Of a DNA stretch of 64,000 nucleotides, positions 1 through 49,735 are shown piece by piece. Under the pieces are notes generated by a model. The model did not search any database and was not told the origin of the DNA. It saw only the letters and a list, made by a program, of their open reading frames with translations. The position numbers and the translations under genes were made by a program. How positions within the stretch are numbered: position 1 is the stretch's first letter; every line of letters starts with the position of its first letter. This DNA is from Psilocybe cubensis. Lineage: Eukaryota. Where the stretch lies: NCBI GenBank assembly GCA_017499595.2, contig CM039008.1, positions 1-64,000 of the forward strand, written 5' to 3'.

Positions 1-246
1 TAAACCCTAAACCCTAAACCCTAAACCCTAAACCCTAAACCCTAAACCCTAAACCCTAAACCCTAAACCCTAAACCCTAAACCCTAAACCCTAAACCCTA
101 AACCCTAAACCCTAAACCCTAAACCCTAAACCCTAAACCCTAAACCCTAAACCCTAAACCCTAAACCCTAAACCCTAAACCCTAAACCCTAAACCCTAAA
201 CCCTAAACCCTAAACCTAAACCCTAAACCCTAAACCCTAAACCCTA
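1..246 (+). repeat. Terminal telomeric tract (TAAACCC)n = (TTTAGGG)n; left chromosome end
   Basis: About 35 near-perfect 7-mer repeats from base 1, C-rich strand on +. Confidence 0.97.
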
Positions 247-807
247 ACCTAACCCCAACCCTAAGCTAACTAAGTCTAACCTTAGTAGGAAGTAAGGTAG
301 GCGTGTGAACTTCCGAACGGCATGTGATTGTGAAGGGCCGGATCTAATTTAGTACATGGGAAAAGTTACTTAGTACTTCGGGAAAAGTTCCTTAGTACCG
401 TGGAAACATTTTTGATGGACCGGATCATGAACTGTCCAATTAAGATTCACAACAATCAATCATTCTATTGTTTGATTGTTAGGTAAGGACCCAGGTAAGC
501 TATTTATACTCTAGACATGTGAATATTCCCATGTCGCGGTTACTCGGAGCCACGTAACCAGAGTAATCTATATCCATGTGATTCACATCACAGTCAATAA
601 CCCACGATGTCAAAGAACAAAAGTGTTGGATCCACTTTTGACAGGTTACCATGTGCCACATCGACCCGTGACACTCTGTTCATCAGAGACCTGTCTAACT
701 TGACAATAAACATTGACAGATTTGTGATAGTCGGTAAGATACATGACAGCTGCGCAGCATCACTTCACGCGCTGTCATCGGATGTCTAGAACATTCCTTC
801 TAAGAAT

Positions 808-1801
808 AGCCACTGAAGAGTCTATAAAGACGAAAGGGCTGGTTGTTGGGATCCCCCAACAGCCCTCAAGTACTCGTCCTCTCCCAAACTCCTGCCGCTT
901 GTGCCTTCCCAACTCATCCGGGAGCCCTTTCGTCACTGATCTTGCCCTTGACTCGGGGACGTTTCATCGACATGTTGGCTGCCTCACGGCAAGCGGGGCC
1001 CTTTTTCTTTCACTCGCTCACGCCTTCTATGTTGGGTTACGGAGGTCATACAAACTCGTTTTAGTCTAGCTGCGGGGATATCCAGCTATGATGACTTTGT
1101 AATTCGAGGGCGCGCAGTTCTTCAATGGGTATGGACATCAGGTGAGAGTACACTGGGGGTTGTCAGGACCAGCTCTGCTGGATACGCTCCTGGCAAGTCG
1201 GTTGCAGCCGGCGACACTACCGAATTGCTGGGACGTCCTAAAGCTTGTGGGTACCGCCGACCGCTGGAAACAGCCTAGGCACCGGTGGCGACCGGGTATG
1301 GTAACAATCCCCAAGATTCAGCGAAAGCTGGAATGGATAATCAGCAGCGAATCCGTAACGGTCACGCCGACGGAAGCGTTCAACGACTAGGTGGTAGTGG
1401 GGTCTTCGGATCTTAAGATATAGTCTTGGGAGTGGGGAAACCCACATCTGGTATCTAAACCGCGCCTCGCTGCTTACGAGGACGGCCCGAAGTCCAGAAC
1501 CGCTTAAAACGCGGGTGACCCGGCCTCCCCTTAGTAAAGGGAGTTAACACAAGGATGGACAAATAGTTCGTCGCCGGAAATGAACCTGTGGCTGTAATGG
1601 CTGATGTGGCGCCCCTTGGTAAAGGGCTTAAAGGGTATTAGCCTGCCATGTCCAATGGCATGAGAGTGTCCCTTGGTAAAGGACTTAATAGGCAATAGCC
1701 TGCTCTTTTGTCATGAGCGGTATGTAGTGATCGTTTGCCTGTACGGTAGCGCCCATTGCTTGCACTGGTCCACGCCCGTAAAAAATCACGAGCCGCTGGC
1801 C
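808..1801 (+). ncRNA. Type I hammerhead ribozyme split by a group I intron (halves 808-866 and 1796-1801)
   Basis: AGCCA-CTGAAGA-GTCT ataa AGAC-GAAA-GGGCTG...CAGCCC-T | intron | C-TGGC; the joined halves equal the intact copy at 6154-6218. Confidence 0.9.
867..1795 (+). ncRNA. Group I intron, IC1-like, 929 nt, no homing endonuclease (copy A)
   Basis: Upstream exon ends in U866 and intron ends in G1795. P AATTGCTGGGA about 1223, Q AATCAGCAGC 1339-1348, R GTTCAACGACTA about 1378-1389, S AAGATATAGTC 1415-1425. P3 CACTACC 1215-1221/GGTAGTG 1393-1399, P7 GACTA/TAGTC, P5b GCTG-GAAA-CAGC, P9 GTGGG-GAAA-CCCAC, IGS GGGGTTGT 1156-1163. Confidence 0.92.
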
Positions 1802-1909
1802 TTCTTTCTATTTCAAACTCACAGTTTAAACTAGTCGCTCGCACCTCGCTTCGCTCGGTGCTCGCTCCCCCCCTAAACCCAACGACTTTGCTATCACCCA
1901 TCAGTTACC

Positions 1910-3068
1910 ATGTCATCCCAATACTCTGCTGCATTCTCTCGTGCCATGTCCCCTACCCTGGACGCACTCACCCAGGCCGTCGTCAACAACACTGTCTTCG
2001 GCGTCAACGATGAAGCAGGCCGCCATAACGCTCTTATCGACGAGCTGGCCACTGTGGTCATCAAAAAAATAGCTGAGTGCCGCTCCGTTGACCAAGTCAT
2101 AGACTGCGTCTTTTTTGACTATCGTGCTGCCCTCAGGGAGTTTCTCCTCAACCTCGCATCGTGGTGCGACAAGAGGGAAACAGTCAAGGCTAGCCTCGAG
2201 CGCCTTGAATCTGCCGTTAGCGCAGGCAACACGCCCAATCGCCTTAAGGTGAAGGCACCCGAGTTCCAACTTACGAAGGAATTCGCGGATGCCGGGTCAG
2301 CGGAGGCTCTTCGAGTCTCCACTACGTTCTCTTCCGCTCGTGATGCCTTCCAAAAGGCAATTAACGACGGCGCCGTTCAGGCGAAAAAGGACGAGCTGGC
2401 TTTTTGGGATGATAAATGCGCACTCAACTCTTGCTACGAAGCTGCTGCCCTCATCGTTAAGGCAACTTACGATGATCGCAAATCCAGCTACAAGCTCCCT
2501 GTTTTCTCTACAGACAACAAGGGAGTTCGACGTATAGCAGAGTGGGTAGTGTCTCCGCAAAAGAAAGCCGAATGCAGTGCGCTGCAAACTATACTGCCGG
2601 CGATCTTTTCTCATATCAAACAGATTGTCAACATGCGCCACCGCGCCTTGGCAATTAAGATTGAGAAAAAGCGGACGACTGCGGCAACAGCCGATGTCGA
2701 GATGGCCGATGCGACCAAACCAGGTCCATCGATTCAATCCCTTATTGATAAGGGCTTGAATGCACGTCTCAAAAAGCTCAACCTTGGATCTGTGGGCAAG
2801 AAGGCAAGTTTTCGTAACCCTTCACCCATAATTCTGGACACTAATTATTACTCTAATTACCCAGACTTTGTCTGGCCAGAATTCGTCCAAGGCTCCTCAA
2901 CCTCAGGCCAGGAAAGCTGGCCCTTCGAAACCCAAGTCGTCGTCGACGCCTTCGCAGAGGAAGCCTCAAACCAAGGCTTCCAACAAGGTCGACAACAAGA
3001 AGAAAGGGAAGGGGAGAGCTCCCGTCAAGAACAACGATCCAAAGGGAAAGGGAAAGGCAAGAGCCTAG
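1910..3068 (+). CDS. Predicted spliced ORF1 isoform (exons 1910-2803 + 2865-3068, about 365 aa) with a Lys-rich C-terminal tail
   Basis: Removing the GC-AG intron joins ...VGKK to TLSGQNSSKAPQ...KGKGKARA*; substitutions between copies are synonymous in this frame. Confidence 0.72.
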
Positions 3069-5443
3069 ACGCGCGGTCTACTGTAGCATCATTTACGTCG
3101 GTGAGACCCGCCTTCCCCAACTCTATTCCTGACGATATACTCACCATGACTAAAACAGACGCAGTTTCTTTTGTACACCTCAATACCCCGATTTCATTCT
3201 TATTGGCTGGCCAGTATAGATCTAGTGTACACTGTAGTCCTGGTGTTTCGGTCCCTGTTGATGTAGCAAATGATTTATCTCTTGGACTCAATTATATGTT
3301 TTTTACACTGCCTTCTAAAAATCTGATCATGCAAGCATGGAATGATTTTCAACGAAGAATAAGATGGCGTATCTATTTTTTGTTTAAAGAAGGCATGAAT
3401 AAACCTTTCGATCCAGACTATGGAGTAAGCTCTAAAAAGAAAGAGAAACCTCCAATGTTACCGCAATTTATGGAACTTGGCCTTTCAATGGGACGTCGGT
3501 ACGTTATTAAAACGATCGCAAGTATCCCGGAAGAAGCCCTTAAAGAGATGCGAAAGCACGCGTTCTCTCCTAAAAGGGACAAGATCCAAAAGTTTCTTTT
3601 CGATAACAACTATGTTATTACGATGACAGATAAGAATCTTGGCCTCGCGGTGTCTGAACGCGACTGGATATTAAGGAATGAGCTCAATCTTCTTGAAGAT
3701 GAACGCAACTACGAAGAGTTAGAATTCGAAGTTGCGCAAGAAGTTATGAAGAGCAAAATGATTCAGATGCAAACTCTCGCACGTACCGTCGAAGATGAAC
3801 ATCTGTTTCTATTTGAACTTGGGTTGTCTCGATTCTTTCTATCGAATGTACCGGAAGACGGATCATCGTTCAAGTATCCTCAATTTCATGGTATACCTAA
3901 AATCCACAAGAAACCTACTGGATTTAGGCCCATAATTCCGTGTCACTCTGTAGTATTTAATCCTGCAGCCAAGTTTGTATCAAAAGAGCTTAAGCCGATT
4001 ATTAAATCGACTCCTTCAATCATTCACGGAACGAAGGATCTCTTTACGAGATTAAGCCAATTGCGTATAGACCCCAAACGACAATGGTATTTTGTCACCG
4101 GGGATGTAGTTGCTTTCTATCCCAATATTCCGTTGGACTTGTGCATCGAAATCGTTTGTAATATGTACGAGGAATGGTTACTCAACGCTTCGGAAGAGAA
4201 CACTGCATTAGCCCATATTAATCCAAATTCGTTAGAGAATAACTTGGTTAAATTGGGCATCTTTAAACGTGCTATCGAGATTGGCAATACGCAATTGATA
4301 ACACAACATGGGTCTAGATATTTTAGACAAAAAAATGGCCTCGCAATGGGCGTCGCGGATTCTCCGGACCTTGCTAACCTCTTTGGAGCCCATTTTGAAA
4401 TAAAGTCAAAAATCTTAGACCACCCAAACGTGGCCTTCTATGGAAGGTACATCGACGATTGTTTCGCAATTGTTTACGCCGAGTCCGAAGCACTTGCACT
4501 TAATCTTATTAAAGAAACAATAAAGTTCGATGGTTGTGTTATCGAATGGGCTGTTTCCTCGTCGGGATGTCAATTTCTCGATGCTTTCATATTCAAGGAG
4601 TCTGGAAAACTTCATTGGAAGCCATTTGTCAAGACAGGAAACAACCGAGAACGAGTTCCATGGGTATCACATCATCCTTTGGACGTCAAACGTGGCGTCT
4701 ACATTGGAGAGTTATCCAGGTTAGCCGTGCTATGTAGTACCAAGGAAATCTACATCGGAGCAATTAGAGACCTTAACGCTCTCTATTTGATGCGCGGTTA
4801 TCCCGAAAACCTAGTCATGTCTTGGTGTAAGAAGAATATACAAGAACGTTGGGAAAAGCGATTCGCTTTACGAGTCGCAGAGCACGACGAATCCATTCTT
4901 GTACTTAAAACCAGATTTGATCAGGTATGGAATTGGTTTTCAGCTGCTGAACTTGGAAAGACTGTTACCGAGTACTGGTCGGCATGGTATGAACATGCCG
5001 AGAAAGGTCTGTATAGTGCAGACTCGTCCAGACCCCTTATCAAACCAGATCCAAATTACGTTCACGACCTCGATGATGTTCGCCCGGAGCTGTTCACACA
5101 GATCCTCGTGGACGGAGAAACTGAGTTCGTACCGGATTTGAGGAAGATAGGACTACTCGGAAGTCGTTGGATAGTATCGCGAAAGCGCAATACTAATCTT
5201 TTCGACCTTGCAAATGTGTGGAAGAAAACAGTTTTTCGTAAACTGGATGAAGACATTGCCGAAAAAGGTGGTGTTGTTCCCGAAACTCAAAACGTTAATG
5301 AAACTTATCATTCTGCTCTAGTTGAAGCTGCTGAACAGATAAGTATCGAAAGTGATAACGAGATAATACTTCATAGACGTTCAATCTCACAAGAGAGGGA
5401 ACATCCAGAATTCGGCAGAATATCCAAATCTTACAACCGATGA
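1910..5443 (+). CDS. Penelope-like reverse transcriptase polyprotein (1177 aa), no recognisable GIY-YIG endonuclease
   Basis: RT motifs GIPKIHK, FRPII, GDVVAFYPNI, QKNGLAMG, RYIDD, FLD; helical N-terminal region. Confidence 0.93.
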   Translation: MSSQYSAAFSRAMSPTLDALTQAVVNNTVFGVNDEAGRHNALIDELATVVIKKIAECRSVDQVIDCVFFDYRAALREFLLNLASWCDKRETVKASLERLESAVSAGNTPNRLKVKAPEFQLTKEFADAGSAEALRVSTTFSSARDAFQKAINDGAVQAKKDELAFWDDKCALNSCYEAAALIVKATYDDRKSSYKLPVFSTDNKGVRRIAEWVVSPQKKAECSALQTILPAIFSHIKQIVNMRHRALAIKIEKKRTTAATADVEMADATKPGPSIQSLIDKGLNARLKKLNLGSVGKKASFRNPSPIILDTNYYSNYPDFVWPEFVQGSSTSGQESWPFETQVVVDAFAEEASNQGFQQGRQQEEREGESSRQEQRSKGKGKGKSLDARSTVASFTSVRPAFPNSIPDDILTMTKTDAVSFVHLNTPISFLLAGQYRSSVHCSPGVSVPVDVANDLSLGLNYMFFTLPSKNLIMQAWNDFQRRIRWRIYFLFKEGMNKPFDPDYGVSSKKKEKPPMLPQFMELGLSMGRRYVIKTIASIPEEALKEMRKHAFSPKRDKIQKFLFDNNYVITMTDKNLGLAVSERDWILRNELNLLEDERNYEELEFEVAQEVMKSKMIQMQTLARTVEDEHLFLFELGLSRFFLSNVPEDGSSFKYPQFHGIPKIHKKPTGFRPIIPCHSVVFNPAAKFVSKELKPIIKSTPSIIHGTKDLFTRLSQLRIDPKRQWYFVTGDVVAFYPNIPLDLCIEIVCNMYEEWLLNASEENTALAHINPNSLENNLVKLGIFKRAIEIGNTQLITQHGSRYFRQKNGLAMGVADSPDLANLFGAHFEIKSKILDHPNVAFYGRYIDDCFAIVYAESEALALNLIKETIKFDGCVIEWAVSSSGCQFLDAFIFKESGKLHWKPFVKTGNNRERVPWVSHHPLDVKRGVYIGELSRLAVLCSTKEIYIGAIRDLNALYLMRGYPENLVMSWCKKNIQERWEKRFALRVAEHDESILVLKTRFDQVWNWFSAAELGKTVTEYWSAWYEHAEKGLYSADSSRPLIKPDPNYVHDLDDVRPELFTQILVDGETEFVPDLRKIGLLGSRWIVSRKRNTNLFDLANVWKKTVFRKLDEDIAEKGGVVPETQNVNETYHSALVEAAEQISIESDNEIILHRRSISQEREHPEFGRISKSYNR
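2804..2864 (+). other. Putative 61-nt GC-AG spliceosomal intron inside the RT ORF (also 8909-8969, 15111-15171, 20830-20890, 26797-26857)
   Basis: AAG|GCAAGT donor, CTAAT branch-like motifs, CCCAG| acceptor; typical fungal intron size. Confidence 0.72.
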
Positions 5444-5556
5444 AAAGAATACTAGCGCGTAAGGCGTAAAGCATTAGAAAAAAACCCTAACCGTAAGTAT
5501 TCCTTGCTATAAAGTAACAAACATCTACTTACAAGCAACACTTTGGATTAAATAGC

Positions 5557-5630
5557 TAAACCTAAACCCTAAACCCTAAACCCTAAACCCTAACCTAACC
5601 CCAACCCTAAGCTAACTAAGTCTAACCTTA
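5557..5630 (+). repeat. Element-internal telomere-like block (TAAACCC x4-5 grading into TAACCTAACCCCAACCCTAAGCTAAC)
   Basis: Same block between the 3' UTR and pLTR in every copy that spans this region. Confidence 0.85.
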
Positions 5631-6153
5631 GTAGGAAGTAAGGTAGGCGTGTGAACTTCCGAACGGCATGTGATTGTGAAGGGCCGGATCTAATTTAGTA
5701 CATGGGAAAAGTTACTTAGTACTTCGGGAAAAGTTCCTTAGTACCGTGGAAACATTTTTGATGGACCGGATCATGAACTGTCCAATTAAGATTCACAACA
5801 ATCAATCATTCTATTGTTTGATTGTTAGGTAAGGACCCAGGTAAGCTATTTATACTCTAGACATGTGAATATTCCCATGTCGCGGTTACTCGGAGCCACG
5901 TAACCAGAGTAATCTATATCCATGTGATTCACATCACAGTCAATAACCCACGATGTCAAAGAACAAAAGTGTTGGATCCACTTTTGACAGGTTACCATGT
6001 GCCACATCGACCCGTGACACTCTGTTCATCAGAGACCTGTCTAACTTGACAATAAACATTGACAGATTTGTGATAGTCGGTAAGATACATGACAGCTGCG
6101 CAGCATCACTTCACGCGCTGTCATCGGATGTCTAGAACATTCCTTCTAAGAAT

Positions 6154-6218
6154 AGCCACTGAAGAGTCTATAAAGACGAAAGGGCTGGTTGTTGGGATCC
6201 CCCAACAGCCCTCTGGCC
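6154..6218 (+). ncRNA. Intact type I hammerhead ribozyme (predicted cleavage after C6213)
   Basis: Stem I GCCA/TGGC, core CTGAAGA, stem II GTCT-ataa-AGAC, GAAA, stem III GGGCTG/CAGCCC, NUH = CUC. Confidence 0.92.
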
Positions 6219-6290
6219 TTCTTTCTATTTCAAACTCACAGTTTAAACTAGTCGCTCGCACCTCGCTTCGCTCGGTGCTCGCTCCCCCCC

Positions 6291-6353
6291 TAAACCCTAA
6301 ACCCTAAACCCTAAAACCTAAACCTAAACCCTAAACCCTAAACCCTAAACCCT
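6291..6353 (+). repeat. Telomeric repeats between copies A and B
   Basis: (TAAACCC)n with variants. Confidence 0.9.
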
Positions 6354-6974
6354 AACCTAACCCCAACCCTAAGCTAACTAAGTCTAACCTTAGTAGGAAG
6401 TAAGGTAGGCGTGTGAACTTCCGAACGGCATGTGATTGTGAAGGGCCGGATCTAATTTAGTACATGGGAAAAGTTACTTAGTACTTCGGGAAAAGTTCCT
6501 TAGTACCGTGGAAACATTTTTGATGGACCGGATCATGAACTGTCCAATTAAGATTCACAACAATCAATCATTCTATTGTTTGATTGTTAGGTAAGGACCC
6601 AGGTAAGTTATTTATACTCTAGACATGTGAATATTCCCATGTCGCGGTTACTCGGAGCCACGTAACCAGAGTAATCTATATCCATGTGATTCACATCACA
6701 GTCAATAACCCACGATGTCAAAGAACAAAAGTGTTGGATCCACTTTTGACAGGTTACCATGTGCCACATCGACCCGTGACACTCTGTTCATCAGAGACCT
6801 GTCTAACTTGACGATAAACATTGACAGATTTGTGATAGTCGGTAAGATACATGACAGCTGCGCAGCATCACTTCACGCGCTGTCATCGGATGTCTAGAAC
6901 ATTCCTTCTAAGAATAGCCACTGAAGAGTCTATAAAGACGAAAGGGCTGGTTGTTGGGATCCCCCAACAGCCCT

Positions 6975-7903
6975 CAAGTACTCGTCCTCTCCCAAACTCC
7001 TGCCGCTTGTGCCTTCCCAACTCATCCGGGAGCCCTTTCGTCACTGATCTTGCCCTTGACTCGGGGACGTTTCATCGACATGTTGGCTGCCTCACGGCAA
7101 GCGGGGCCCTTTTTCTTTCACTCGCTCACGCCTTCTATGTTGGGTTACGGAGGTCATACAAACTCGTTTTAGTCTAGCTGCGGGGTTATCCAGCTATGAT
7201 GACTTTGTAATTCGAGGGCGCGCAGTTCTTCAATGGGTATGGACATCAGGTGAGAGTACACTGGGGGTTGTCAGGACCAGCTCTGCTGGATACGCTCCTG
7301 GCAAGTCGGTTGCAGCCGGCGACACTACCGAATTGCTGGGACGTCCTAAAGCTTGTGGGTACCGCCGACCGCTGGAAACAGCCTAGGCACCGGTGGCGAC
7401 CGGGTATGGTAACAATCCCCAAGATTCAGCGAAAGCTGGAATGGATAATCAGCAGCGAATCCGTAACGGTCACGCCGACGGAAGCGTTCAACGACTAGGT
7501 GGTAGTGGGGTCTTCGGATCTTAAGATATAGTCTTGGGAGTGGGGAAACCCACATCTGGTATCTAAACCGCGCCTCGCTGCTTACGAGGACGGCCCGAAG
7601 TCCAGAACCGCTTAAAACGCGGGTGACCCGGCCTCCCCTTAGTAAAGGGAGTTAACACAAGGATGGACAAATAGTTCGTCGCCGGAAATGAACCTGTGGC
7701 TGTAATGGCTGATGTGGCGCCCCTTGGTAAAGGGCTTAAAGGGTATTAGCCTGCCATATCCAATGGCATGAGAGTGTCCCTTGGTAAAGGACTTAATAGG
7801 CAATAGCCTGCTCTTTTGTCATGAGCGGTATGTAGTGATCGTTTGCCTGTACGGTAGCGCCCATTGCTTGCACTGGTCCACGCCCGTAAAAAATCACGAG
7901 CCG
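6975..7903 (+). ncRNA. Group I intron in hammerhead (copy B)
   Basis: 929 nt, same U/G boundaries and core as 867-1795. Confidence 0.92.
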
Positions 7904-8014
7904 CTGGCTACTTTCCATTTAACTCCCAGTTTAAACTAGTCGCTCGCACCTCGCTTCGCTCGGTGCTCGCTCCCCCCCTAAACCCAACGACTTTGCTATT
8001 ATCCATCAGCCACT

Positions 8015-11000
8015 ATGTCATCTCAATACTCTGCTGCTTTCTCTCGTGCCATGTCCCCCACCCTGGACGCACTCACCCAGGCCGTCGTCAACAACACCGT
8101 TTTCGGCGTCAACGATGAAGCAGGCCGCCATAACGCTCTGATCGACGAGCTGGCCACTGTGGTCATCAAAAAAATAGCTGAGTGCCGCTCCGTTGACCAA
8201 GTCATAGACTGCGTCTTTTTTGACTATCGTGCTGCCCTTAGGGAGTTTCTCCTCAACCTCGCATCGTGGTGCGATAAGAGGGAAACAGTCAAGGCTAGCC
8301 TCGAGCGCCTTGAATCTGCCGTTAGCGCAGGCAACACGCCCAATCGCCTTAAGGTGAAGGCACCCGAGTTCCAACTTACGAAGGAATTCGCGGATGCCGG
8401 GTCAGCGGAGGCTCTTCGAGTCTCCACTACGTTCTCTACCGCTCGTGACGCCTTCCAAAAGGCAATTAACGACGGCGCCATTCAGGCGAAAAAGGACGAG
8501 CTGACTTTTTGGGATGATAAATGCGCACTCAACTCTTGCTACGAAGCTGCTGCCCTCATCGTTAAGGCAACTTACGATGATCGCAAATCCAGCTACAAGC
8601 TCCCTGTTTTCTCTACAGATAACAAGGGAGTTCGACGTATAGCAGAGTGGGTAGTGTCTCCGCAAAAGAAAGCCGAATGCAGTGCGCTGCAAACCATACT
8701 GCCGGCGATCTTTTCTCACATCAAACAAATTGTCAACATGCGCCACCGCGCTTTGGCAATTAAGATTGAGAAAAAGCGGACGACTGCGGCAACAGCCGAT
8801 GTCGAGATGGCCGACGCGACCAAACCAGGTCCGTCGATTCAATCCCTTATTGATAAGGGCTTGAATGCACGTCTCAAGAAGCTCAACCTTGGATCTGTGG
8901 GCAAGAAGGCAAGTTTTCGTAACCCTTCACCCATAATTCTGGATACTAATTACTACTCTAATTACCCAGACTTTGTCTGGCCAGAATTCGTCCAAGGCTC
9001 CTCAACCTCAGGCCAAGAAAGCTGGCCCTTCGAAACCCAAGTCGTCGTCGACGCCTTCGCAACGCAAGCCTCAAACCAAGGCTTCCAACAAGGTCGACAA
9101 CAAGAAGAAAGGGAAGGGGAGAGCTCCCGTCAAGAACGATCCAAAGGGAAAGGGAAAGGCAAGAGCCTAGATGCGCGGTCTAATGTAGTACCTTTTACGT
9201 CGGTGAGACCCGCCTTCCCCAACTCTATTCCTGACGATATACTCACCATGACTAAAACAGACGCAGTTTCTTTCGTACACTTACATACTCCAATATCATT
9301 CTTGTTGGCTGGCCAGTATCGTAGTAGTGTACATTGTAGTCCTGGTGTTTCTGTCCCTGTTGATGTAGCAAACGATCTCTCTCTCGGACTTAATTATATG
9401 TTTTTCACTCTGCCTTCTAAAAGTCTGATCATGCAAGCATGGAATGATTTCCAACGAAGAATAAGATGGCGTATCTATTTTTTGTTTAAGGAAGGCATGA
9501 ATAAACCTTTTGATCCAGATTATGGAGTAAGCTCAAAAAAGAAAGAGAAACCTCCTGTATTACCGCAATATATGGAACTTGGCCTTTCGATGGGACGTCG
9601 GTACGTGCAACGCACGATCGCAAGTATCCCGGAAGAAGCCCTTACGGAGATGCGAAAGCACGCGTTCTCTCCTAAAAGGGACAAGATCCGTAAGTTTCTT
9701 ATCGATAACAACTATGTTATTACGATGACAGATAAGAATCTTGGCCTCGCGGTGTCTGAACGCGACTGGATATTAAGGAATGAGCTCAATCTTCTTGAAG
9801 ATGAACGTAATTACGAAGAGTTAGAATTCGAAGTTGCGCAAGAAGTTATGAAGAGCAAAATGATTCAGATGCAAACGCTCGCACGTACTGTCGAAGATGA
9901 ACATCTGTTTCTATTTGAACTTGGGTTGTCTCGATTCTTTCTATCGAATGTACCGGAAGACGGATCATCGTTCAAGTATCCTCAATTTCATGGTATACCT
10001 AAAATCCACAAGAAACCTACTGGATTTAGGCCCATAATTCCGTGTCACTCTGTAGTATTTAATCCTGCAGCCAAGTTTGTATCAAAAGAGCTTAAGCCGA
10101 TTATTAAATCGACTCCTTCAATCATACACGGAACGAAGGATCTCTTTACGAGATTAAGCCAATTGCGTATAGACTCCAAAAGACAATGGTATTTTGTCAC
10201 TGGAGATGTAGTTGCTTTCTATCCCAATATTCCGTTGGACTTGTGCATCGAAATCGTTTGTAGTATGTACGAGGAATGGTTACTCAACGCTTCGGAAGAA
10301 AACACTGCATTAGCCCATATTAATCCAAATTCGTTAGAGAATAACTTGGTTAAATTGGGCATCTTTAAACGTGCTATCGAGATTGGCAATACGCAATTGA
10401 TAACACAACATGGGTCTAGATATTTTAGACAAAAAAATGGCCTCGCAATGGGCGTCGCGGATTCTCCGGACCTTGCTAACCTCTTTGGAGCCCATTTTGA
10501 AATAAAGTCAAAAATCTTAGACCACCCAAACGTGGCCTTCTATGGAAGGTACATCGACGATTGTTTCGCAATTGTTTACGCCGAGTCCGAAGCACTTGCA
10601 CTTAATCTTATTAAAGAAACAATAAAGTTCGATGGTTGTGTTATCGAATGGGCTGTTTCCTCGTCGGGATGTCAATTTCTCGATGCTTTCATATTCAAGG
10701 AGTCTGGAAAACTTCATTGGAAGCCTTTTGTCAAGACAGGAAACAACCGAGAACGAGTTCCATGGGTATCACATCATCCTTTGGACGTCAAACGTGGCGT
10801 CTACATTGGAGAGTTATCCAGGTTAGCCGTGCTATGTAGTACCAAGGAAATCTACATCGGAGCAATTAGAGACCTTAACGCTCTCTATTTGATGCGCGGT
10901 TATCCCGAAAACCTAGTCATATCTTGGTGTAAGAAGAATATACAAGAACGTTGGGAAAAGCGATTCGCTTTACGAGTCGCAGAGCACGACGAATCCATTC

Positions 11001-11545
11001 TTGTACTTAAAACCAGATTTGATCAGGTATGGAATTGGTTTTCAGCTGCTGAACTTGGAAAAACTGTTACCGAGTACTGGTCGGCATGGTATGAACATGC
11101 CGAGAAAGGTTTGTATAGTGCAGACTCGTCCAGACCCCTTATCAAACCAGATCCAAATTACGTTCACGACCTCGATGATGTTCGCCCGGAGCTGTTCACA
11201 CAGATCCTCGTGGACGGAGAAACTGAGTTCGTACCGGATTTGAGGAAGATAGGACTACTCGGAAGTCGTTGGATAGTATCGCGAAAACGCAATACTAATC
11301 TTTTCGACCTTGCAAATGTGTGGAAGAAAACAGTCTTTCGTAAACTGGATGAAGACATCGCTGAAAAAGGTGGTGTTGTTCCCGAAACTCAAAACGTTAA
11401 TGAAACTTATCATTCTGCTTTAGTTGAAGCTACTGAGCAGATAAGTATCGAAAGTGATAACGAGATAATACTTCATAGACGTTCAATCTCACAAGAGAGG
11501 GAACATCCAGAATTTGGCAGAATATCCAAATCTTACAACCGATGA
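8015..11545 (+). CDS. Penelope-like RT polyprotein (1176 aa), intact
   Basis: Same RT motifs as copy A. Confidence 0.93.
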   Translation: MSSQYSAAFSRAMSPTLDALTQAVVNNTVFGVNDEAGRHNALIDELATVVIKKIAECRSVDQVIDCVFFDYRAALREFLLNLASWCDKRETVKASLERLESAVSAGNTPNRLKVKAPEFQLTKEFADAGSAEALRVSTTFSTARDAFQKAINDGAIQAKKDELTFWDDKCALNSCYEAAALIVKATYDDRKSSYKLPVFSTDNKGVRRIAEWVVSPQKKAECSALQTILPAIFSHIKQIVNMRHRALAIKIEKKRTTAATADVEMADATKPGPSIQSLIDKGLNARLKKLNLGSVGKKASFRNPSPIILDTNYYSNYPDFVWPEFVQGSSTSGQESWPFETQVVVDAFATQASNQGFQQGRQQEEREGESSRQERSKGKGKGKSLDARSNVVPFTSVRPAFPNSIPDDILTMTKTDAVSFVHLHTPISFLLAGQYRSSVHCSPGVSVPVDVANDLSLGLNYMFFTLPSKSLIMQAWNDFQRRIRWRIYFLFKEGMNKPFDPDYGVSSKKKEKPPVLPQYMELGLSMGRRYVQRTIASIPEEALTEMRKHAFSPKRDKIRKFLIDNNYVITMTDKNLGLAVSERDWILRNELNLLEDERNYEELEFEVAQEVMKSKMIQMQTLARTVEDEHLFLFELGLSRFFLSNVPEDGSSFKYPQFHGIPKIHKKPTGFRPIIPCHSVVFNPAAKFVSKELKPIIKSTPSIIHGTKDLFTRLSQLRIDSKRQWYFVTGDVVAFYPNIPLDLCIEIVCSMYEEWLLNASEENTALAHINPNSLENNLVKLGIFKRAIEIGNTQLITQHGSRYFRQKNGLAMGVADSPDLANLFGAHFEIKSKILDHPNVAFYGRYIDDCFAIVYAESEALALNLIKETIKFDGCVIEWAVSSSGCQFLDAFIFKESGKLHWKPFVKTGNNRERVPWVSHHPLDVKRGVYIGELSRLAVLCSTKEIYIGAIRDLNALYLMRGYPENLVISWCKKNIQERWEKRFALRVAEHDESILVLKTRFDQVWNWFSAAELGKTVTEYWSAWYEHAEKGLYSADSSRPLIKPDPNYVHDLDDVRPELFTQILVDGETEFVPDLRKIGLLGSRWIVSRKRNTNLFDLANVWKKTVFRKLDEDIAEKGGVVPETQNVNETYHSALVEATEQISIESDNEIILHRRSISQEREHPEFGRISKSYNR

Positions 11546-12260
11546 AAAGAATACTAGCGCTTAAGGCGTAAAGCATTAGAAAAAAACCCTAACCGTAAGT
11601 ATTCCTTGCTATAAAGTAACAAACATCTACTTACAAGCAACACATTGGATTGAATAGCTAAACCTAAACCTAAACCCTAAACCCTAAACCCTAAACCCTA
11701 ACCTAACCCCAACCCTAAGCTAACTAAGTCTAACCTTAGTAGGAAGTAAGGTAGGCGTGTGAACTTCCGAACGGCATGTGATTGTGAAGGGCCGGATCTA
11801 ATTTAGTACATGGGAAAAGTTACTTAGTACTTCGGGAAAAGTTCCTTAGTACCGTGGAAACATTTTTGATGGACCGGATCATGAACTGTCCAATTAAGAT
11901 TCACAACAATCAATCATTCTATTGTTTGATTGTTAGGTAAGGACCCAGGTAAGTTATTTATACTCTAGACATGTGAATATTCCCATGTCGCGGTTACTCG
12001 GAGCCACGTAACCAGAGTAATCTATATCCATGTGATTCACATCACAGTCAATAACCCACGATGTCAAAGAACAAAAGTGTTGGATCCACTTTTGACAGGT
12101 TACCATGTGCCACATCGACCCGTGACACTCTGTTCATCAGAGACCTGTCTAACTTGACGATAAACATTGACAGATTTGTGATAGTCGGTAAGATACATGA
12201 CAGCTGCGCAGCATCACTTCACGCGCTGTCATCGGATGTCTAGAACATTCCTTCTAAGAA

Positions 12261-12327
12261 TAGCCACTGAAGAGTCTATAAAGACGAAAGGGCTGGTTGT
12301 TGGGATCCCCCAACAGCCCTCTGGCTA
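12261..12327 (+). ncRNA. Intact hammerhead ribozyme (copy B 3' pLTR)
   Basis: Same core; stem I TAGCCA/TGGCTA. Confidence 0.9.
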
Positions 12328-13175
12328 CTTTCCATTTAACTCCCAGTTTAAACTAGTCGCTCGCACCTCGCTTCGCTCGGTGCTCGCTCCCCCCCTAAAC
12401 CCTAACCCTAAACCCTAAAACCCTAGCGCGTAAGGCGTAAAGCATTAGAAAAAAACCCTAACCGTAAGTATTCCTTGCTATAAAGTAACAAACATCTACT
12501 TACAAGCAACACTTTGGATTAAATAGCTAAACCTAAACCCTAAACCCTAAACCCTAAACCCTAACCTAACCCCAACCCTAAGCTAACTAAGTCTAACCTT
12601 AGTAGGAAGTAAGGTAGGCGTGTGAACTTCCGAACGGATGTGATTGTGAAGGGCCGGATCTAATTTAGTACATGGGAAAAGTTACTTAGTACTTCGGGAA
12701 AAGTTCCTTAGTACCGTGGAAACATTTTTGATGGACCGGATCATGAACTGTCCAATTAAGATTCACAACAATCAATCATTTGATTGTTAGGTAAGGACCC
12801 AGGTAAGCTATTTATACTCTAGACATGTGAATATTCCCATGTCGCGGTTACTCGGAGCCACGTAACCAGAGTACTCTATATCCATGTGATTCACATCACA
12901 GTCAATAACCCACAATGTCAAAGAACAAAAGTGTTGGATCCACTTTTGACAGGTTACCATGTGCCACATCGACCCGTGACACTCTGTTCATCAGAGATCT
13001 GTCTAACTTGACAATAAACATTGACAGATTTGTGATAGTCGGTAAGATACATGACAGCTGCGCAGCATCACTTCACGCGCTGTCATCGGATGTTCCAGAA
13101 CATTCCTTCTAAGAATAGCCACTGAAGAGTCTATAAAGACGAAAGGGCTGGCTGCTGATAACAATCAACAGCCCT

Positions 13176-14104
13176 CAAGTACTCGTCCTCTCCCAAACTC
13201 CTGCCGCTTGTGCCTTCCCAACTCATCCGGGAGCCCTTTCGTCACTGATCTTGCCCTTGACTCGGGGACGTTTCATCGACATGTTGGCTGCCTCACGGCA
13301 AGCGGGGCCCTTTTTCTTTCACTCGCTCACGCCTTCTATGTTGGGTTACGGAGGTCATACAAACTCGTTTTAGTCTAGCTGCGGGGTTATCCAGCTATGA
13401 TGACTTTGTAATTCGAGGGCGCGCAGTTCTTCAATGGGTATGGACATCAGGTGAGAGTACACTGGGGGTTGTCAGGACCAGCTCTGCTGGATACGCTCCT
13501 GGCAAGTCGGTTGCAGCCGGCGACACTACCGAATTGCTGGGACGTCCTAAAGCTTGTGGGTACCGCCGACCGCTGGAAACAGCCTAGGCACCGGTGGCGA
13601 CCGGGTATGGTAACAATCCCCAAGATTCAGCGAAAGCTGGAATGGATAATCAGCAGCGAATCCGTAACGGTCACGCCGACGGAAGCGTTCAACGACTAGG
13701 TGGTAGTGGGGTCTTCGGATCTTAAGATATAGTCTTGGGAGTGGGGAAACCCACATCTGGTATCTAAACCGCGCCTCGCTGCTTACGAGGACGGCCCGAA
13801 GTCCAGAACCGCTTAAAACGCGGGTGACCCGGCCTCCCCTTAGTAAAGGGAGTTAACACAAGGATGGACAAATAGTTCGTCGCCGGAAATGAACCTGTGG
13901 CTGTAATGGCTGATGTGGCGCCCCTTGGTAAAGGGCTTAAAGGGTATTAGCCTGCCATGTCCAATGGCATGAGAGTGTCCCTTGGTAAAGGACTTAATAG
14001 GCAATAGCCTGCTCTTTTGTCATGAGCGGTATGTAGTGATCGTTTGCCTGTACGGTAGCGCCCATTGCTTGCACTGGTCCACGCCCGTAAAAAATCACGA
14101 GCCG
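13176..14104 (+). ncRNA. Group I intron in hammerhead (copy C)
   Basis: 929 nt, same boundaries and core. Confidence 0.92.
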
Positions 14105-14216
14105 CTGGCCTTCTTTCCATTTAACTCACAGTTTAAACAAGTCGCTCGCACCTCGCTTCGCTCGGTGCTCGCTCCCCCCCTAAACCCAACGACTTTGCTA
14201 TTACCCAACAGCTACT

Positions 14217-17200
14217 ATGTCTTCCACTTACTCTGCTGCCTTCTCTCGTGCCATGTCCCCCACCCTGGACGCACTCACCCAGGCTGTCGTCAACAACACA
14301 GTTTTTGGCGTCAACGACGAAGCTGGCCGCCACAACGCCCTCATCGACGAGTTGGCCACTGTCGTCATCAAGAAAATAGCTGAGTGCCGCTCCATTGACC
14401 AGATTGTAGACTGCGTCTTTTTTGACTATCGTGCTGCCCTTAGGGAGTTTCTCCTCAACCTCGCATCGTGGTGCGATAAGAGGGAAACAGTCAAGGCTAG
14501 CCTCGAGCGCCTTGAACTTGCCGTTAGCGCAGGCAACACCCCCAATCGCCTTCGGGTGAAGGCTCCCGAGTTCCAACTTACGAAGGAATTCGCGGATGCC
14601 GGGTCAGCGGAAGCTCTTCGAGTTTCCTCTACGTTCTCCACCGCTCGTGATGTCTTCCAAAAGGCAATCAACGACGGCGCCATTCAGGCGAAAAAGGACG
14701 AACTGGCCTTTTGGGATGATAAATGCGCACTCAATAACTGTTATGAAGCTGCTGCCCTCATCGTTAAGACAACTTACGATGATCGCAAATCCAGCTATAA
14801 GCTCCCCGTTTTCTCTACAGACAACAAGGGAGTTCGTCGAATAACAGATTGGGTAGTGTCACCGCAGAAGAAGGCTGAATGCAGCGCATTGCAAACCATT
14901 TTGCCAGCCATCTTCTCTCATATCAAACAGATTGTCAACTTGCGCCACCGCGCTTTGGCAATCAAGATTGAGAAAAAGCGGTCGACTGCGGCAACAGCCG
15001 ATGTCGAGATGGCCGATGCGACCAAACCAGGTCCATCGATTCAATCCCTTATTGATAAGGGCTTGAATGCACGTCTCAAGAAGCTCAACCTTGGATCTGT
15101 GGGCAAGAAGGCAAGTTCTCGTAACCCTTCACCCATAACTCTGGATACTAATTACTATTCTAATTACCCAGACTTTGTCTGGCCAGAATTCGTCCAAGGC
15201 TCCTCAACCTCAGGCCAAGAAAGCTGGCCCTTCGAAATTCAAACCCTCGTCGACGCCTTCGCAGAAGAAGCCCCAAACCAAGGCTTCCAACAAGGTCGAC
15301 AACAAGAAGAAAGGGAAGGGGAGAGCTCCCGTCAAGAACGATCCAAAGGGAAAGGGAAAGGCAAGAGCCTAGACGCGCGGTCTAATGTAGTACCTTTTAC
15401 GTCGGTAAGACCCGCCTTCCCCAACTCTATTCCTGACGATATACTCACCATGACTAAAACAGACGCAGTTTCTTTTGTACACTTACATACGCCGATCTCA
15501 TTCTTGTTGGCTGGCCAGTATCGTAGTAGTGTACACTGTAGTCCTGGTGTGGTGGTCCCTGTAGATATAGCAAATGATTTGTCACTCGGACTCAATTATA
15601 TGTTTTTTACTCTACCTTCTCAAAGTCTGATCATGCAAGCATGGAATGATTTTCAACGAAGAATAAGATGGCGTATCTATTTTTTGTTTAAGGAAGGCAT
15701 GAACAAACCTTTTGATCCAGATTACGGAGTAAGCTCAAAAAAGAAAGAGAAACCTCCAGTATTACCGCAATACATGGAACTTGGCCTTTCGATGGGACGT
15801 CGGTACGTGCAACGCACGATCGCAAGTATCCCGGAAGAAGCCCTTACGGAGATGCGAAAGCACGCGTTCTCTCCTAAAAGGGACAAGATCCGTAAGTTTC
15901 TTATCGATAACAACTATGTTATTACGATGACAGATAAGAATCTTGGCCTCGCGGTGTCTGAACGCGACTGGATATTAAGGAATGAGCTCAATCTTCTTGA
16001 AGATGAACGTAACTATGAAGAGTTAGAATTCGAAGTTGCGCAAGAAGTAATGAAGAGCAAAATGATCCAGATGCAAACTCTTGCACGTACCGTCGAAGAT
16101 GAACATCTGTTTCTATTTGAACTTGGGTTGTCTCGATTCTTTCTATCGAATGTACCGGAAGACGGATCATCGTTCAAGTACCCTCAATTTCATGGTATAC
16201 CTAAAATCCACAAAAAACCTACTGGATTTAGGCCCATAATTCCGTGTCACTCTGTAGTATTTAATCCTGCAGCCAAGTTTGTATCAAAAGAGCTTAAGCC
16301 GATTATTAAATCGACTCCTTCAATCATTCACGGAACGAAGGATCTCTTTACGAGATTAAGCCAATTGCGTATAGACCCCAAACGACAATGGTATTTTGTC
16401 ACCGGGGATGTAGTTGCTTTCTATCCCAATATTCCGTTGGACTTGTGCATCGAAATCGTTTGTAATATGTACGAGGAATGGTTACTCAACGCTTCGGAAG
16501 AAAACACTGCATTAGCCCATATTAATCCAAATTCGTTAGAGAATAACTTGGTTAAATTGGGCATCTTTAAACGTGCTATCGAGATTGGCAATACGCAATT
16601 GATAACACAACATGGGTCTAGATATTTTAGACAAAAAAAATGGCCTCGCAATGGGCGTCGCGGATTCTCCGGACCTTGCTAACCTCTTTGGAGCCCATTT
16701 TGAAATAAAGTCAAAAATCTTAGACCACCCAAACGTGGCCTTCTATGGAAGGTACATCGACGATTGTTTCGCAATTGTTTACGCCGAGTCCGAAGCACTT
16801 GCACTTAATCTTATTAAAGAAACAATAAAGTTCGATGGTTGTGTTATCGAATGGGCTGTTTCCTCGTCGGGATGTCAATTTCTCGATGCTTTCATATTCA
16901 AGGAGTCTGGAAAACTTCATTGGAAGCCATTTGTCAAGACAGGAAACAACCGAGAACGAGTTCCATGGGTATCACATCATCCTTTGGACGTCAAACGTGG
17001 CGTCTACATTGGAGAGTTATCCAGGTTAGCCGTGCTATGTAGTACCAAGGAAATCTACATCGGAGCAATTAGAGACCTTAACGCTCTCTATTTGATGCGC
17101 GGTTATCCCGAAAACCTAGTCATGTCTTGGTGTAAGAAGAATATACAAGAACGTTGGGAAAAGCGATTCGCTTTACGAGTCGCAGAGCACGACGAATCCA

Positions 17201-17748
17201 TTCTTGTACTTAAAACCAGATTTGATCAGGTATGGAATTGGTTTTCAGCTGCTGAACTTGGAAAAACTGTTACCGAGTACTGGTCGGCATGGTATGAACA
17301 TGCCGAGAAAGGTTTGTATAGTGCAGACTCGTCCAGACCCCTTATCAAACCAGATCCAAATTACGTTCACGACCTCGATGATGTTCGCCCGGAGCTGTTC
17401 ACACAGATCCTCGTGGACGGAGAAACTGAGTTCGTACCGGATTTGAGGAAGATAGGACTACTCGGAAGTCGTTGGATAGTATCGCGAAAACGCAATACTA
17501 ATCTTTTCGACCTTGCAAATGTGTGGAAGAAAACAGTCTTTCGTAAACTGGATGAAGACATCGCTGAAAAAGGTGGTGTTGTTCCCGAAACTCAAAACGT
17601 TAATGAAACTTATCATTCTGCTTTAGTTGAAGCTGCTGAACAGATAAGTATCGAAAGTGATAACGAGATAATACTTCATAGACGTTCAATCTCACAAGAG
17701 AGGGAACATCCAGAATTCGGCAGAATATCCAAATCTTACAACCGATGA
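14217..17748 (+). pseudogene. Penelope-like RT ORF with a +1 frameshift (extra A in the run at about 16633-16640)
   Basis: GACAAAAAAAATGG has 8 A against 7 in other copies; ORF splits into 821 + 378 aa; could be a homopolymer sequencing error. Confidence 0.75.
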
Positions 17749-18457
17749 AAAGAATACTAGCGCGTAAGGCGTAAAGCATTAGAAAAAAACCCTAACCGTA
17801 AGTATTCCTTGCTACAAAGTAACAAACATCTACTTACAAGCAACACATTGGATTAAATAGCTAAACCTAAACCTAAACCCTAAACCCTAAACCCTAAGCC
17901 CTAACCTAACCCCAACCCTAAGCTAACTAAGTCTAACCTTAGTAGGAAGTAAGGTAGGCGTGTGAACTTCCGAAAGGCATGTGATTGTGAAGGGCCGGAT
18001 CTAATTTAGTACATGGGAAAAGTTACTTAGTACCTCGGGAAAAGTTCCTTAGTACCGTGGAAACATTTTTGATGGACCGGATCATGAACTGTCCAATTAA
18101 GATTCACAACAATCAATCAATTGATTGTTAGGTAAGGACCCAGGTAAGCTATTTATACTCTTGACATGAGAATATTCCCATGTCACGGTTACTCGGAGCC
18201 ACGTAACCAGAGTATTTTATATCCATGTGATTCACATCACAGTCAATAACCCACGATGTCAAAGAACAAAAGTGTTGGATCCACTTTTGACAGGTTACCA
18301 TGTGCCACATCGACCCGTGACACTCTGTTCATCAGAGATCTGTCTAACTTGACAATAAACATTGACAGATTTGTGATAGTCGGTAAGATACATGACAGCT
18401 GCGCAGCATCACTTCACGCGCTGTCATCGGATGTTCCAGAACATTCCTTCTAAGAAT

Positions 18458-18522
18458 AGCCACTGAAGAGTCTATAAAGACGAAAGGGCTGGCTGCTGAT
18501 AACAATCAACAGCCCTCTGGCC
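18458..18522 (+). ncRNA. Intact hammerhead ribozyme (copy C 3' pLTR)
   Basis: Same core; variant stem III extension TGAT-aaca-ATCA. Confidence 0.9.
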
Positions 18523-18592
18523 TTCTTTCCATTTAACTCACAGTTTAAACAAGTCGCTCGCACCTCGCTTCGCTCGGTGCTCGCTCCCCCCC

Positions 18593-18705
18593 TAAACCCT
18601 AAACCCTAAACCCTTAACCCTAAACCCTAAACCCTAAACCCTAAACCCTAAACCCTAAACCCTAAACCCTAAACCCTAAACCCTAAACCCTAAACCCCTA
18701 AACCC
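18593..18705 (+). repeat. Interstitial telomeric tract
   Basis: About 16 TAAACCC units. Confidence 0.93.
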
Positions 18706-24309: not shown

Positions 24310-24365
24310 TAAACCCTAAACCCTAAACCCTAAACCCTAAACCCTAAACCCTAAACCCTAAACCC

Positions 24366-25136
24366 TAGCCACTGAAGAGTCTATAAAGACGAAAGGGCTG
24401 GCTGCTGATAACAATCAACAGCCCTCTGGCTACTTTCCATTTAACTCACAGTTTAAATTAGTCGCTCGCACCTCGCTTCGCTCGGTGCTCGCTCCCCCCC
24501 TAAACCCGTTACCATGTGCCACATCGACCCGTGACACTCTGTTCATCAGAGATCTGTCTAACTTGACAATAAACATTGACAGATTTGTGATAGTCGGTAA
24601 GATACATGACAGCTGCGCAGCATCACTTCACGCGCTGTCATCGGATGTTCCAGAACATTCCTTCTAAGAATAGCCACTGAAGAGTCTATAAAGACGAAAG
24701 GGCTGGCTGCTGATAACAATCAACAGCCCTCTGGCTACTTTCCATTTAACTCACAGTTTAAATTAGTCGCTCGCACCTCGCTTCGCTCGGTGCTCGCTCC
24801 CCCCCTAAACCCTAAACCCTAAACCCTAAACCCTAAACCCTAAACCCTAAACCCTAAACCCGTGACACTCTGTTCATCAGAGACCTGTCTAACTTGACAA
24901 TAAACATTGACAGATTTGTGATAGTCGGTAAGATACATGACAGCTGCACAGCATCACTTCACGCGCTGTCATCGGATGTCTAGAACATTCCTTCTAAGAA
25001 TAGCCACTGAAGAGTCTATAAAGACGAAAGGGCTGGTTGTTGGTACCCCCCAACAGCCCTCTGGCCTTCTTTCCATTTAACTCACAGTTTAAACAAGTCG
25101 CTCGCACCTCGCTTCGCTCGGTGCTCGCTCCCCCCC
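24366..25136 (+). mobile_element. Three short 3'-terminal pLTR fragments (24366-24500, 24508-24805, 24862-25136), each with an intact hammerhead
   Basis: Each ends at CTCGCTCCCCCCC followed by TAAACCC repeats; hammerheads at 24366-24432, 24671-24737, 25001-25066. Confidence 0.9.
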
Positions 25137-49684: not shown

Positions 49685-49735
49685 TAAACCCTAAACCCTA
49701 AACCCTAAACCCTAAACCCTAAAACCTAACCCTAA
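49685..49735 (+). repeat. Interstitial telomeric tract
   Basis: TAAACCC x5 plus degenerate units. Confidence 0.88.

Follow-up and report, generated by a model that had tools for sequence, protein, structure and literature searches.

What are three almost identical inserts of 929 nucleotides (nt) doing inside the hammerhead ribozyme of a chromosome-end retrotransposon, and how did they get there? The question is raised by the window analysed here, 64,000 nt of Psilocybe cubensis (assembly GCA_017499595.2, contig CM039008.1, positions 1–64,000, forward strand), which opens on a telomere followed by an array of elements with the features of telomeric Penelope-like elements (PLEs). There is good support for the insert being a genuine nuclear group I intron that encodes no protein. 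The intron probably belongs to the RNA of the PLE and spreads by reverse splicing and copying by the element's reverse transcriptase (RT).

The inserts and the parts of copy A are as follows, in window coordinates. Pseudo-LTR stands for pseudo-long terminal repeat, and P1 to P9 are the paired regions of group I introns.

867–1795, + strand: copy A of the group I intron, 929 nt
6975–7903, + strand: copy B of the group I intron, located within element B's upstream pseudo-LTR
13176–14104, + strand: copy C of the group I intron, in a pseudo-LTR that has another helix III variant
859–866, + strand: 5′ exon strand of P1, ACAGCCCU (given also as ACAGCCCT), which doubles as U16.1 and the hammerhead helix III 3′ strand
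867–1155, + strand: 5′ extension from the splice site to the guide sequence, partly conserved with the related element L071
1156–1163, + strand: internal guide sequence GGGGUUGU (given also as GGGGTTGT)
1164–1448, + strand: ribozyme core
1164–1192 and 1197–1212, + strand: P2 and P2.1
1215–1221/1393–1399 and 1226–1231/1341–1346, + strand: P3 and P4
1233–1338 and 1347–1377, + strand: long P5 extension and P6
1385–1389/1421–1425, 1399–1414 and 1432–1445, + strand: P7, P8 and P9 (GAAA loop)
1449–1795, + strand: 3′ extension (347 nt) with a direct-repeat motif at 1612–1631 and 1669–1688 and the terminal G at 1795

The 929-nt inserts differed from each other at two (A/B), one (A/C) and one (B/C) positions. 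The 5′ junction string was found three times (860, 6968 and 13169), as was the 3′ junction string, and the ligated junction CAGCCCTCTGGC occurred 13 times, always on the + strand. All three inserts scored above the gathering cut-off of 50 bits of the Rfam group I model RF00028, with 70.9 bits (1151–1447), 73 bits (7178–7555) and 73 bits (13379–13756). No further Rfam match at the gathering level was detected in the 64 kb beyond these three cores. The core also folded more stably than its shuffles (z −2.9). Of the peripheral helices that would bear on a placement in subgroup IC1, P2, P2.1 and a long P5 extension are present. The insert is preceded by T866, its first base is a C and its last base is G1795. 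The boundary is uncertain by one C, and the alternative parse would place the intron exactly at the hammerhead cleavage site (CUC/.../UGG). Joining of the excised intron by end-to-end template jumps at the cleavage site was considered and rejected, as it predicts CUC-C...G-UGG and the DNA reads CU-C...G-CUGG.

The guide GGGGTTGT forms eight contiguous pairs with the exon ACAGCCCT, with U.G at the splice site, and this run sits directly 5′ of P2 in the canonical guide position. The runner-up among the G-started guide sites in the 5′ part of the intron reached five pairs. A run of at least eight pairs anywhere in the 349-nt 5′ part was obtained in 95 of 5000 mononucleotide shuffles. These results agree with the original prediction, made from the DNA letters alone, which had claimed three near-identical inserts that follow a U and end in G, a group I core, a guide–exon pairing through U.G and thirteen other repeats with the exact ligated junction. 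Both exon–intron junctions are spanned by X5 contigs and the intron is covered at a depth of ~105 by the reads of X22, a raw DNA run with the same species label from a different sample; the intron is therefore no assembly artefact.

No ATG-started open reading frame (ORF) of at least 40 aa was found on the + strand of the intron and one of 69 aa was found on the minus strand. A homing endonuclease route was rejected on the lack of an ATG-started + strand ORF of 40 aa or more within the intron. A second ribozyme or twin-ribozyme organisation was likewise not found, with no other Rfam match at the gathering level and no such ORF inside the intron.

In copy A, the intron lies between the following parts of the hammerhead.

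809–866, + strand: 5′ part of the split hammerhead (intact copies elsewhere, e.g. 6155–6217)
809–812, 813–819 and 820–831, + strand: helix I 5′ strand, core CUGAAGA and helix II
832–835, 836–865 and 866, + strand: GAAA, helix III hairpin and U16.1
1796–1880, + strand: 3′ exon with C17 (1796), the helix I 3′ strand (1797–1800) and the terminal segment of the pseudo-LTR, ending CCCTAAACCC

The intact hammerhead (e.g. 6155–6217) comprises helix I (GCCA/UGGC), CUGAAGA, helix II (GUCU-AUAA-AGAC) and GAAA, followed by the long helix III hairpin, U-C and the cleavage site. A check with covariance models failed, as no Rfam hammerhead model reached its gathering score (RAGATH-1 25.3 bits, cut-off 56.3; Hammerhead_3 19.5 bits, cut-off 48.5); the long helix III variant fits the models poorly. 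The models were replaced by a comparative test on the window and on the coding strand of 80 metagenomic loci encoding relatives of the RT (31–66% identity). All three helices formed in 57 of 86 core matches on the + strand; none of the 12 minus-strand matches and none of the 10 in shuffled sequence did so. Among these 57 hammerheads, helices I, II and III were represented by 18, 14 and 25 distinct variants, respectively, and all three helices covary. In the 31 loci that combine an upstream core with a long ORF, the hammerhead was usually located 131–199 nt upstream of the ATG. The interrupted motif is a genuine type I hammerhead, open at helix I, which the insert enters between U16.1 and C17 as predicted. 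According to PMC4209133, fungal PLE hammerheads are of type I with a large helix III and lie in pseudo-LTRs, and the one of the Serpula lacrymans PLE self-cleaves as a monomer in vitro.

In elements A to C, U16.1 (866 in copy A) is separated from C17 and helix I (1796–1800) by the 929-nt intron, and unspliced RNA is therefore unable to form the hammerhead. Exact ligation of the exons would restore it, as follows from the sequence. The exon strand of P1 serves at the same time as the helix III 3′ strand, which puts the two folds in competition; predicted folding energies are −17.3 kcal/mol for the helix III hairpin and −11.0 kcal/mol for the P1 duplex. The split of the hammerhead is a real consequence in P. 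cubensis, where the upstream copy would be disabled until splicing.

All 80 loci were scanned for the conserved S-element motif and compared with the intron by BLAST, and 24 of them were scanned with Rfam. Homologous group I cores were detected in four of the 80 loci, namely L071 with two cores, L069, L051 and L064. The L071 cores reached 72.8 and 76.5 bits (Rfam group I, cut-off 50). The first L071 intron (7231–8076), whose bounds were taken from the element's own intron-less downstream pseudo-LTR, lies 13 nt beyond the hammerhead cleavage site, is preceded by U, starts with C and ends in G. The second (8194–9129, 76.5 bits) follows codon 8 of the RT ORF. Its removal yields a frame of 1208 codons and the unspliced frame stops after 37 codons; an in-frame ATG at the 3′ end of the intron offers an alternative start, so the restored frame is not decisive. 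The introns of L051 and L064, aligned to each other and to the intron-less L046, lie ~4 and ~50 nt past the cleavage site. The core of L069 is truncated by the contig end. The introns proposed for the relatives likewise end in G, and the hammerhead is left intact by both L071 introns and by that of L064.

Five cores were aligned without reference to structure and scored on the canonical helices. Pairing was possible in 92.6% of the cells vs. 31–51% when the partners were slid, a compensatory change was found in 21 of 45 pairs, and none of 500 shuffles reached the observed values. At the homologous place, the guide paired best with the intron's own exon in four of the five introns, with contiguous runs from the splice site of 8, 6, 5 and 4 pairs. 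The covarying cores and own-exon guides show that the intron family is old, is under constraint as a ribozyme and is bound to this family of retroelements. The insertion site varies among relatives, and splitting of the hammerhead is peculiar to the Psilocybe lineage.

Two side observations concern these loci. A short motif (CCCTTGGTAAAGG... then TTAGCCTGC) that is repeated in the 3′ extension of the P. cubensis intron (1612–1631 and 1669–1688) recurs in L069:609-650, L071:7870-8000 and L079:1308-1349, the last without a detected group I core. In the distant relative L066, ~1.1 kb separate a hammerhead-like core from the ORF start (L066:340-1422), and no group I signal was found in this segment.

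The host of the intron was characterised through its ORF and its surroundings. The 1177-aa ORF contains the motifs FVTGD and YIDD, and its excised central RT region matched RVT_1 with an E value of 2.6e-6 and 27.8 bits, just below the cut-off of 29.6. Compared with Pfam in full length, neither the 1177-aa protein nor a near-identical protein from the database had a match even at E 10, and apart from RVT_1 no Pfam family, endonucleases included, was found in the ORF. PDB sequence and profile searches with the element protein returned no matches. The closest database proteins (99%) are P. cubensis hypothetical proteins, and 347 relatives were found at E ≤0.001. An invariant TDKNLG block resembles the 'DKG' motif of PLEs. 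The array is arranged as follows.

1–260, + strand: terminal telomere tract, (TAAACCC)n, C-rich strand, ~37 units
~200–6300, 6300–12420, 12500–18620 and 25100–30290, + strand: full-length units A, B, C and D
261–866, + strand: the part of element A's upstream pseudo-LTR that precedes the 5′ splice site, starting with a fixed telomere-like tract
1910–5443, + strand: ORF of element A, 1177 aa, with the RT domain
5560–6290, + strand: downstream pseudo-LTR of A, identical to the upstream one but without the intron, with an intact hammerhead at 6155–6217
8015–11545, + strand: ORF of element B
14217–16682 and 16612–17748, + strand: ORF of element C, frameshifted into overlapping frames of 821 aa and 378 aa
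25100–30290, + strand: element D, full length and intron-less, with the ligated junction at 25784

Every unit behind the telomere tract lies on the + strand, with short telomeric tracts between the units; several of the remaining units are 5′-truncated and others are solo terminal repeats. The window thus holds an RT ORF without an endonuclease domain, a terminal location, copies ending in the telomere-complementary CCCTAAACCC, and pseudo-LTRs with a hammerhead, which are the features of Coprina-type elements. The same set of terminal location, telomere-complementary 3′ end, pseudo-LTRs and hammerhead is described in PMC8557442 for endonuclease-less, telomere-attached PLEs. These features match a telomeric, endonuclease-less Penelope-like retrotransposon of P. 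cubensis, in line with the telomeric Penelope-like host that had been predicted for the insert.

Some further features of the array were noted. The 7-nt telomere repeat is of the TTTAGGG type, both at 1–260 and in internal tracts (e.g. 18590–18694), and the related metagenomic element L071 terminates in CCCTAACCCTAACC. The repeat usually described for fungi, agarics included, is TTAGGG. A solo pseudo-LTR at 24350–24430 starts right after telomeric repeats, exactly at the helix I 5′ strand of the hammerhead, and its 3′ end is joined to an internal pseudo-LTR position. In its centromere-proximal half (34000–64000), the window contains one further pseudo-LTR (~48950–49720) and ordinary-looking ORFs (59497–64000). 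In element C, the intron is intact despite the frameshift-split ORF.

Full-length elements carry two pseudo-LTRs each. The two of A, like the two of B, are 100% identical over 620 nt and share their 3′ flank, including a variant private to B, and the intron is present in the upstream pseudo-LTR and missing from the downstream one. Intron-less alleles with the same flanks were found for A at 6206 and 20375, for B at 12314 (private variant included) and for C at 18510 and 30920. Such ligated junctions in DNA are compatible with splicing, but they stand as separate loci. The tract between the 3′ untranslated region (UTR) and the next pseudo-LTR is fixed, with two types one unit apart, and the tracts beyond the pseudo-LTR end are variable in length. 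Ahead of the intron-bearing pseudo-LTR of C, a 3′ UTR fragment and a fixed telomere-like tract form a partial tandem (12440–12575), as if reverse transcription had jumped to a third template. The shared private variants, the fixed and variable tracts and the 3′ UTR fragment of C suggest that, within a single insertion, repeated copies are made of the pseudo-LTR region of one RNA species. This fits the partial tandems of PLEs and the internal initiation that is reported for PLE insertion in PMC11167929. One possibility for the upstream-only intron is that only unspliced and hence uncleavable RNAs yield complete 5′ ends.

No copy in the window begins or is truncated at the hammerhead cleavage site. 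Hammerhead cleavage in the retrotransposition templates gained no support, and the only contig of the RNA-library run X19 reads through the site.

Evidence on mobility came from the comparison of the introns with their surroundings. In the first half of the ORF, A and B differ from C by 7–10% per 200-nt stretch and C differs from D at 0–2 positions per 200; the 5′ half of the ORF of D, which is intact, is nearly identical to that of C. Despite these divergent ORF halves, the three introns differ from one another at no more than 2 of 929 positions. Upstream of the intron, the flanks diverge within 8–25 nt (helix III variants); downstream of it, divergence begins at +6 or +13. Near-identical introns in divergent flanks imply either precise insertion into different alleles or paired crossovers at the intron ends each time. 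A fourth exon context was found in an X5 contig, where the intron follows a fourth helix III variant, and intron pieces of at least 99% identity were found in X8, which carries another organism label.

In X22, the depth was ~1400 for the pseudo-LTR, ~350 for the ORF start and ~105 for the intron. The intron therefore reaches ~30% of the ORF 5′ depth and ~7.5% of the pseudo-LTR depth, which corresponds to a few copies and not to an rDNA-like (ribosomal DNA) number. Among the 12 intron variants listed for X22, one lies in the 293-nt core, where it changes a G.U pair to G-C. Nine X22 DNA reads with seven start positions contain a head-to-tail junction (1795 to 867) without exon bases, which points to either a tandem intron or an intron circle that was copied in that sample. 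Such a junction is expected from reverse splicing into an intron-bearing RNA or from reverse transcription of an intron circle, and it would be hard to obtain by DNA recombination.

Splicing and movement by reverse splicing appear to be the best-supported mechanism for these findings, and the account given at the outset is considered probable. The excised intron would pair through its guide GGGGUUGU to ACAGCCCU and reverse-splice into the element RNA after that U. The element's own RT would then copy the recombinant RNA onto a chromosome end, which would fix the intron without a homing endonuclease. Forward splicing followed by reverse transcription would give the exact intron-less junctions. 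The intron lineage would be resident in the retroelement family, its sites in relatives lying between the hammerhead and the ORF start, and the target in P. cubensis would only by coincidence be the helix III 3′ strand of the element's hammerhead.

Several observations weigh against this account. Three of the related cores score below the cut-off of 50 bits (L069 39.6, L051 34.2 and L064 31.6 bits), and the splice sites of L051 and L064 were placed by alignment to relatives and not from empty sites. The first L071 intron lacks a convincing P1, with a guide–exon run of two pairs at the homologous site. The distance of 289 nt from the 5′ splice site to the guide sequence is unusual, and neither extension folds in a special way compared to shuffles (5′ z −0.3, 3′ z −0.9). 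The intron is present in three of the four upstream pseudo-LTRs of full-length elements and in none of the downstream or solo copies, of which there are 12, although paired pseudo-LTRs share private variants; an asymmetry of this kind is not expected from simple reverse splicing. The nine reads with the head-to-tail junction come from another sample. Of 24 runs, X19 is the only one recorded as RNA that contains any of the stretch (share 0.07), and its single contig is an intron-less pseudo-LTR; X23 and X24, presumed to be RNA, have a share of 0.00. Reads of spliced appearance would be ambiguous since intron-less copies are present in the DNA. Finally, the elements are mosaics with frequent recombination, which leaves some room for spread by that route.

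The asymmetry is among the observations that speak for a different explanation, an evolved two-ribozyme switch in which the intron is kept as a safety catch in the upstream hammerhead. Unspliced RNA, uncleavable at its 5′ copy, would stay full length and give complete, promoter-bearing progeny, and splicing would re-arm the hammerhead and so commit the RNA to being cleaved. The separation of U16.1 and C17, the competition between P1 and helix III (−17.3 vs. −11.0 kcal/mol) and the X22 depth of the intron, higher relative to the ORF start than to the pseudo-LTR, fit this as well. P1 of L051 would tie up the helix I 3′ strand along with the bases of the cleavage site. All these counts are small, however, and the relatives argue otherwise. 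Their introns sit 4, 13 or ~50 nt past the cleavage site or in the ORF, with the hammerhead left intact by those of L071 and L064. What is conserved is therefore not the splitting of the hammerhead. Moreover, the full-length element D, whose ORF is intact, has no intron, the window holds no copy truncated at the cleavage site, and ribozyme mutants of an animal PLE had no effect on insertion in vitro in the account of PMC11167929. The original prediction had proposed that self-splicing gates the hammerhead in a two-ribozyme processing cascade. Its structural half, a hammerhead that cannot form in unspliced RNA and returns upon ligation, is upheld by the sequence, and its evolved half is not supported. 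Gating for the element's benefit is possible, but a switch as the reason for the intron's presence is judged unlikely.

The mosaic elements and their frequent recombination would also suit a spread of the intron as DNA among the pseudo-LTRs, whether through recombination, gene conversion or homing of the endonuclease type, and without reverse splicing. The private variants shared by paired pseudo-LTRs likewise require some homogenising step. But conversion between paired pseudo-LTRs would also have copied or erased the intron, and flank co-conversion is not seen, as the shared block ends no more than 8 nt upstream and 6–13 nt downstream of the intron in three contexts. Together with the lack of an endonuclease ORF and the head-to-tail junction free of exon bases, this makes such a spread improbable. 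The intron might also be a dead passenger, i.e. a once-active intron that is now an inert 929-nt insertion in three sibling elements, next to intron-less copies that never had one. The three copies are indeed so similar that constraint cannot be read within the window, the ORF of element C is frameshifted and the first L071 intron has no good P1. However, an inert insertion would hardly be met in three to four exon contexts with exactly matching empty sites, nor with all core pairings and the guide sequence intact, cores that covary across the family and a single core change (G.U to G-C) among the 12 X22 variants listed. This last explanation is very improbable. Reverse splicing with the element's RT is thus preferred. 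The wider proposition, that a group I lineage left the rDNA, settled in fungal telomeric PLEs, spreads there by reverse splicing, reverse transcription and integration, and locks the hammerhead in Psilocybe, is made tentatively, with doubt slightly outweighing confidence.

Reviews place all known nuclear group I introns in rDNA (PMC3679873, PMC8395846 and PMC9223047), and the PLE introns would be the first ones outside it. Searches of full-text literature, covering the main texts of papers, did not turn up a group I intron described from a PLE or another nuclear retroelement, and the arrangement within a PLE hammerhead, for which no description was known to the original prediction either, was not found described. 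The upstream-only distribution, the near-identical introns in differing exon contexts and the homologous introns at other sites are newly seen here. The full reverse-splicing pathway of mobility, including reverse transcription and integration, is treated in PMC3679873 as being without experimental evidence. If the preferred account is true, this long-postulated and never completed route is followed here by means of the host element's enzyme. An ideal natural trap for reverse-spliced introns is offered by a retrotransposon RNA whose reverse transcription onto chromosome ends is routine, and the trap appears to have caught the intron repeatedly, judging by the several exon contexts, the exact empty sites and the head-to-tail DNA junction. 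The pathway becomes directly testable in a culturable fungus. Beyond mobility, the locus would show a group I ribozyme that works in presumably polymerase II transcripts, or that at least persists there, and a natural case of one ribozyme structurally disabling another, and it bears on the construction of pseudo-LTRs by PLEs.

The intron resembles the nuclear rDNA group I introns (Tetrahymena L1925 and those of fungal and myxomycete small and large subunit genes) in its P3–P9 core with R/S and a GAAA-capped P9, in P2/P2.1 and in the long P5 extension. Like most of them, it has U.G at the 5′ splice site, a terminal G and no ORF. Large peripheral insertions with direct repeats are reported for some rDNA introns (PMC3679873). 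It differs from the rDNA introns in residing in a retrotransposon transcript at a chromosome end, at a depth of few copies, in the 155–289 nt between 5′ splice site and guide in this family, and in one relative, the second L071 intron, that appears to interrupt a protein-coding frame.

In twin-ribozyme introns, a splicing ribozyme harbours a lariat-capping ribozyme together with an endonuclease gene. These introns share with the present case two ribozymes nested in one transcript, the activity of one bearing on the other. Here, however, the nesting is inverted, with the group I intron inside the small ribozyme and no second ribozyme or endonuclease gene within it.

The hammerhead itself is like those described for fungal PLEs by Cervera and De la Pena 2014 (PMC4209133), being of type I with a long helix III and a pseudo-LTR location, whereas three of its copies are interrupted by the 929-nt group I intron. 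Penelope of Drosophila virilis likewise keeps an intron in its 5′ region, the end of which maps to the 5′ end of hammerhead helix I (PMC4209133). That intron is spliceosomal and lies beside the ribozyme; the intron of P. cubensis is of the self-splicing type and lies inside it. The combination of a ribozyme, reverse splicing and a reverse transcriptase as a route of mobility is finally shared with the mobile group II introns. In contrast to these, ribozyme and RT stem from two unrelated elements here, and the intron, which encodes nothing, would borrow the RT of its host.

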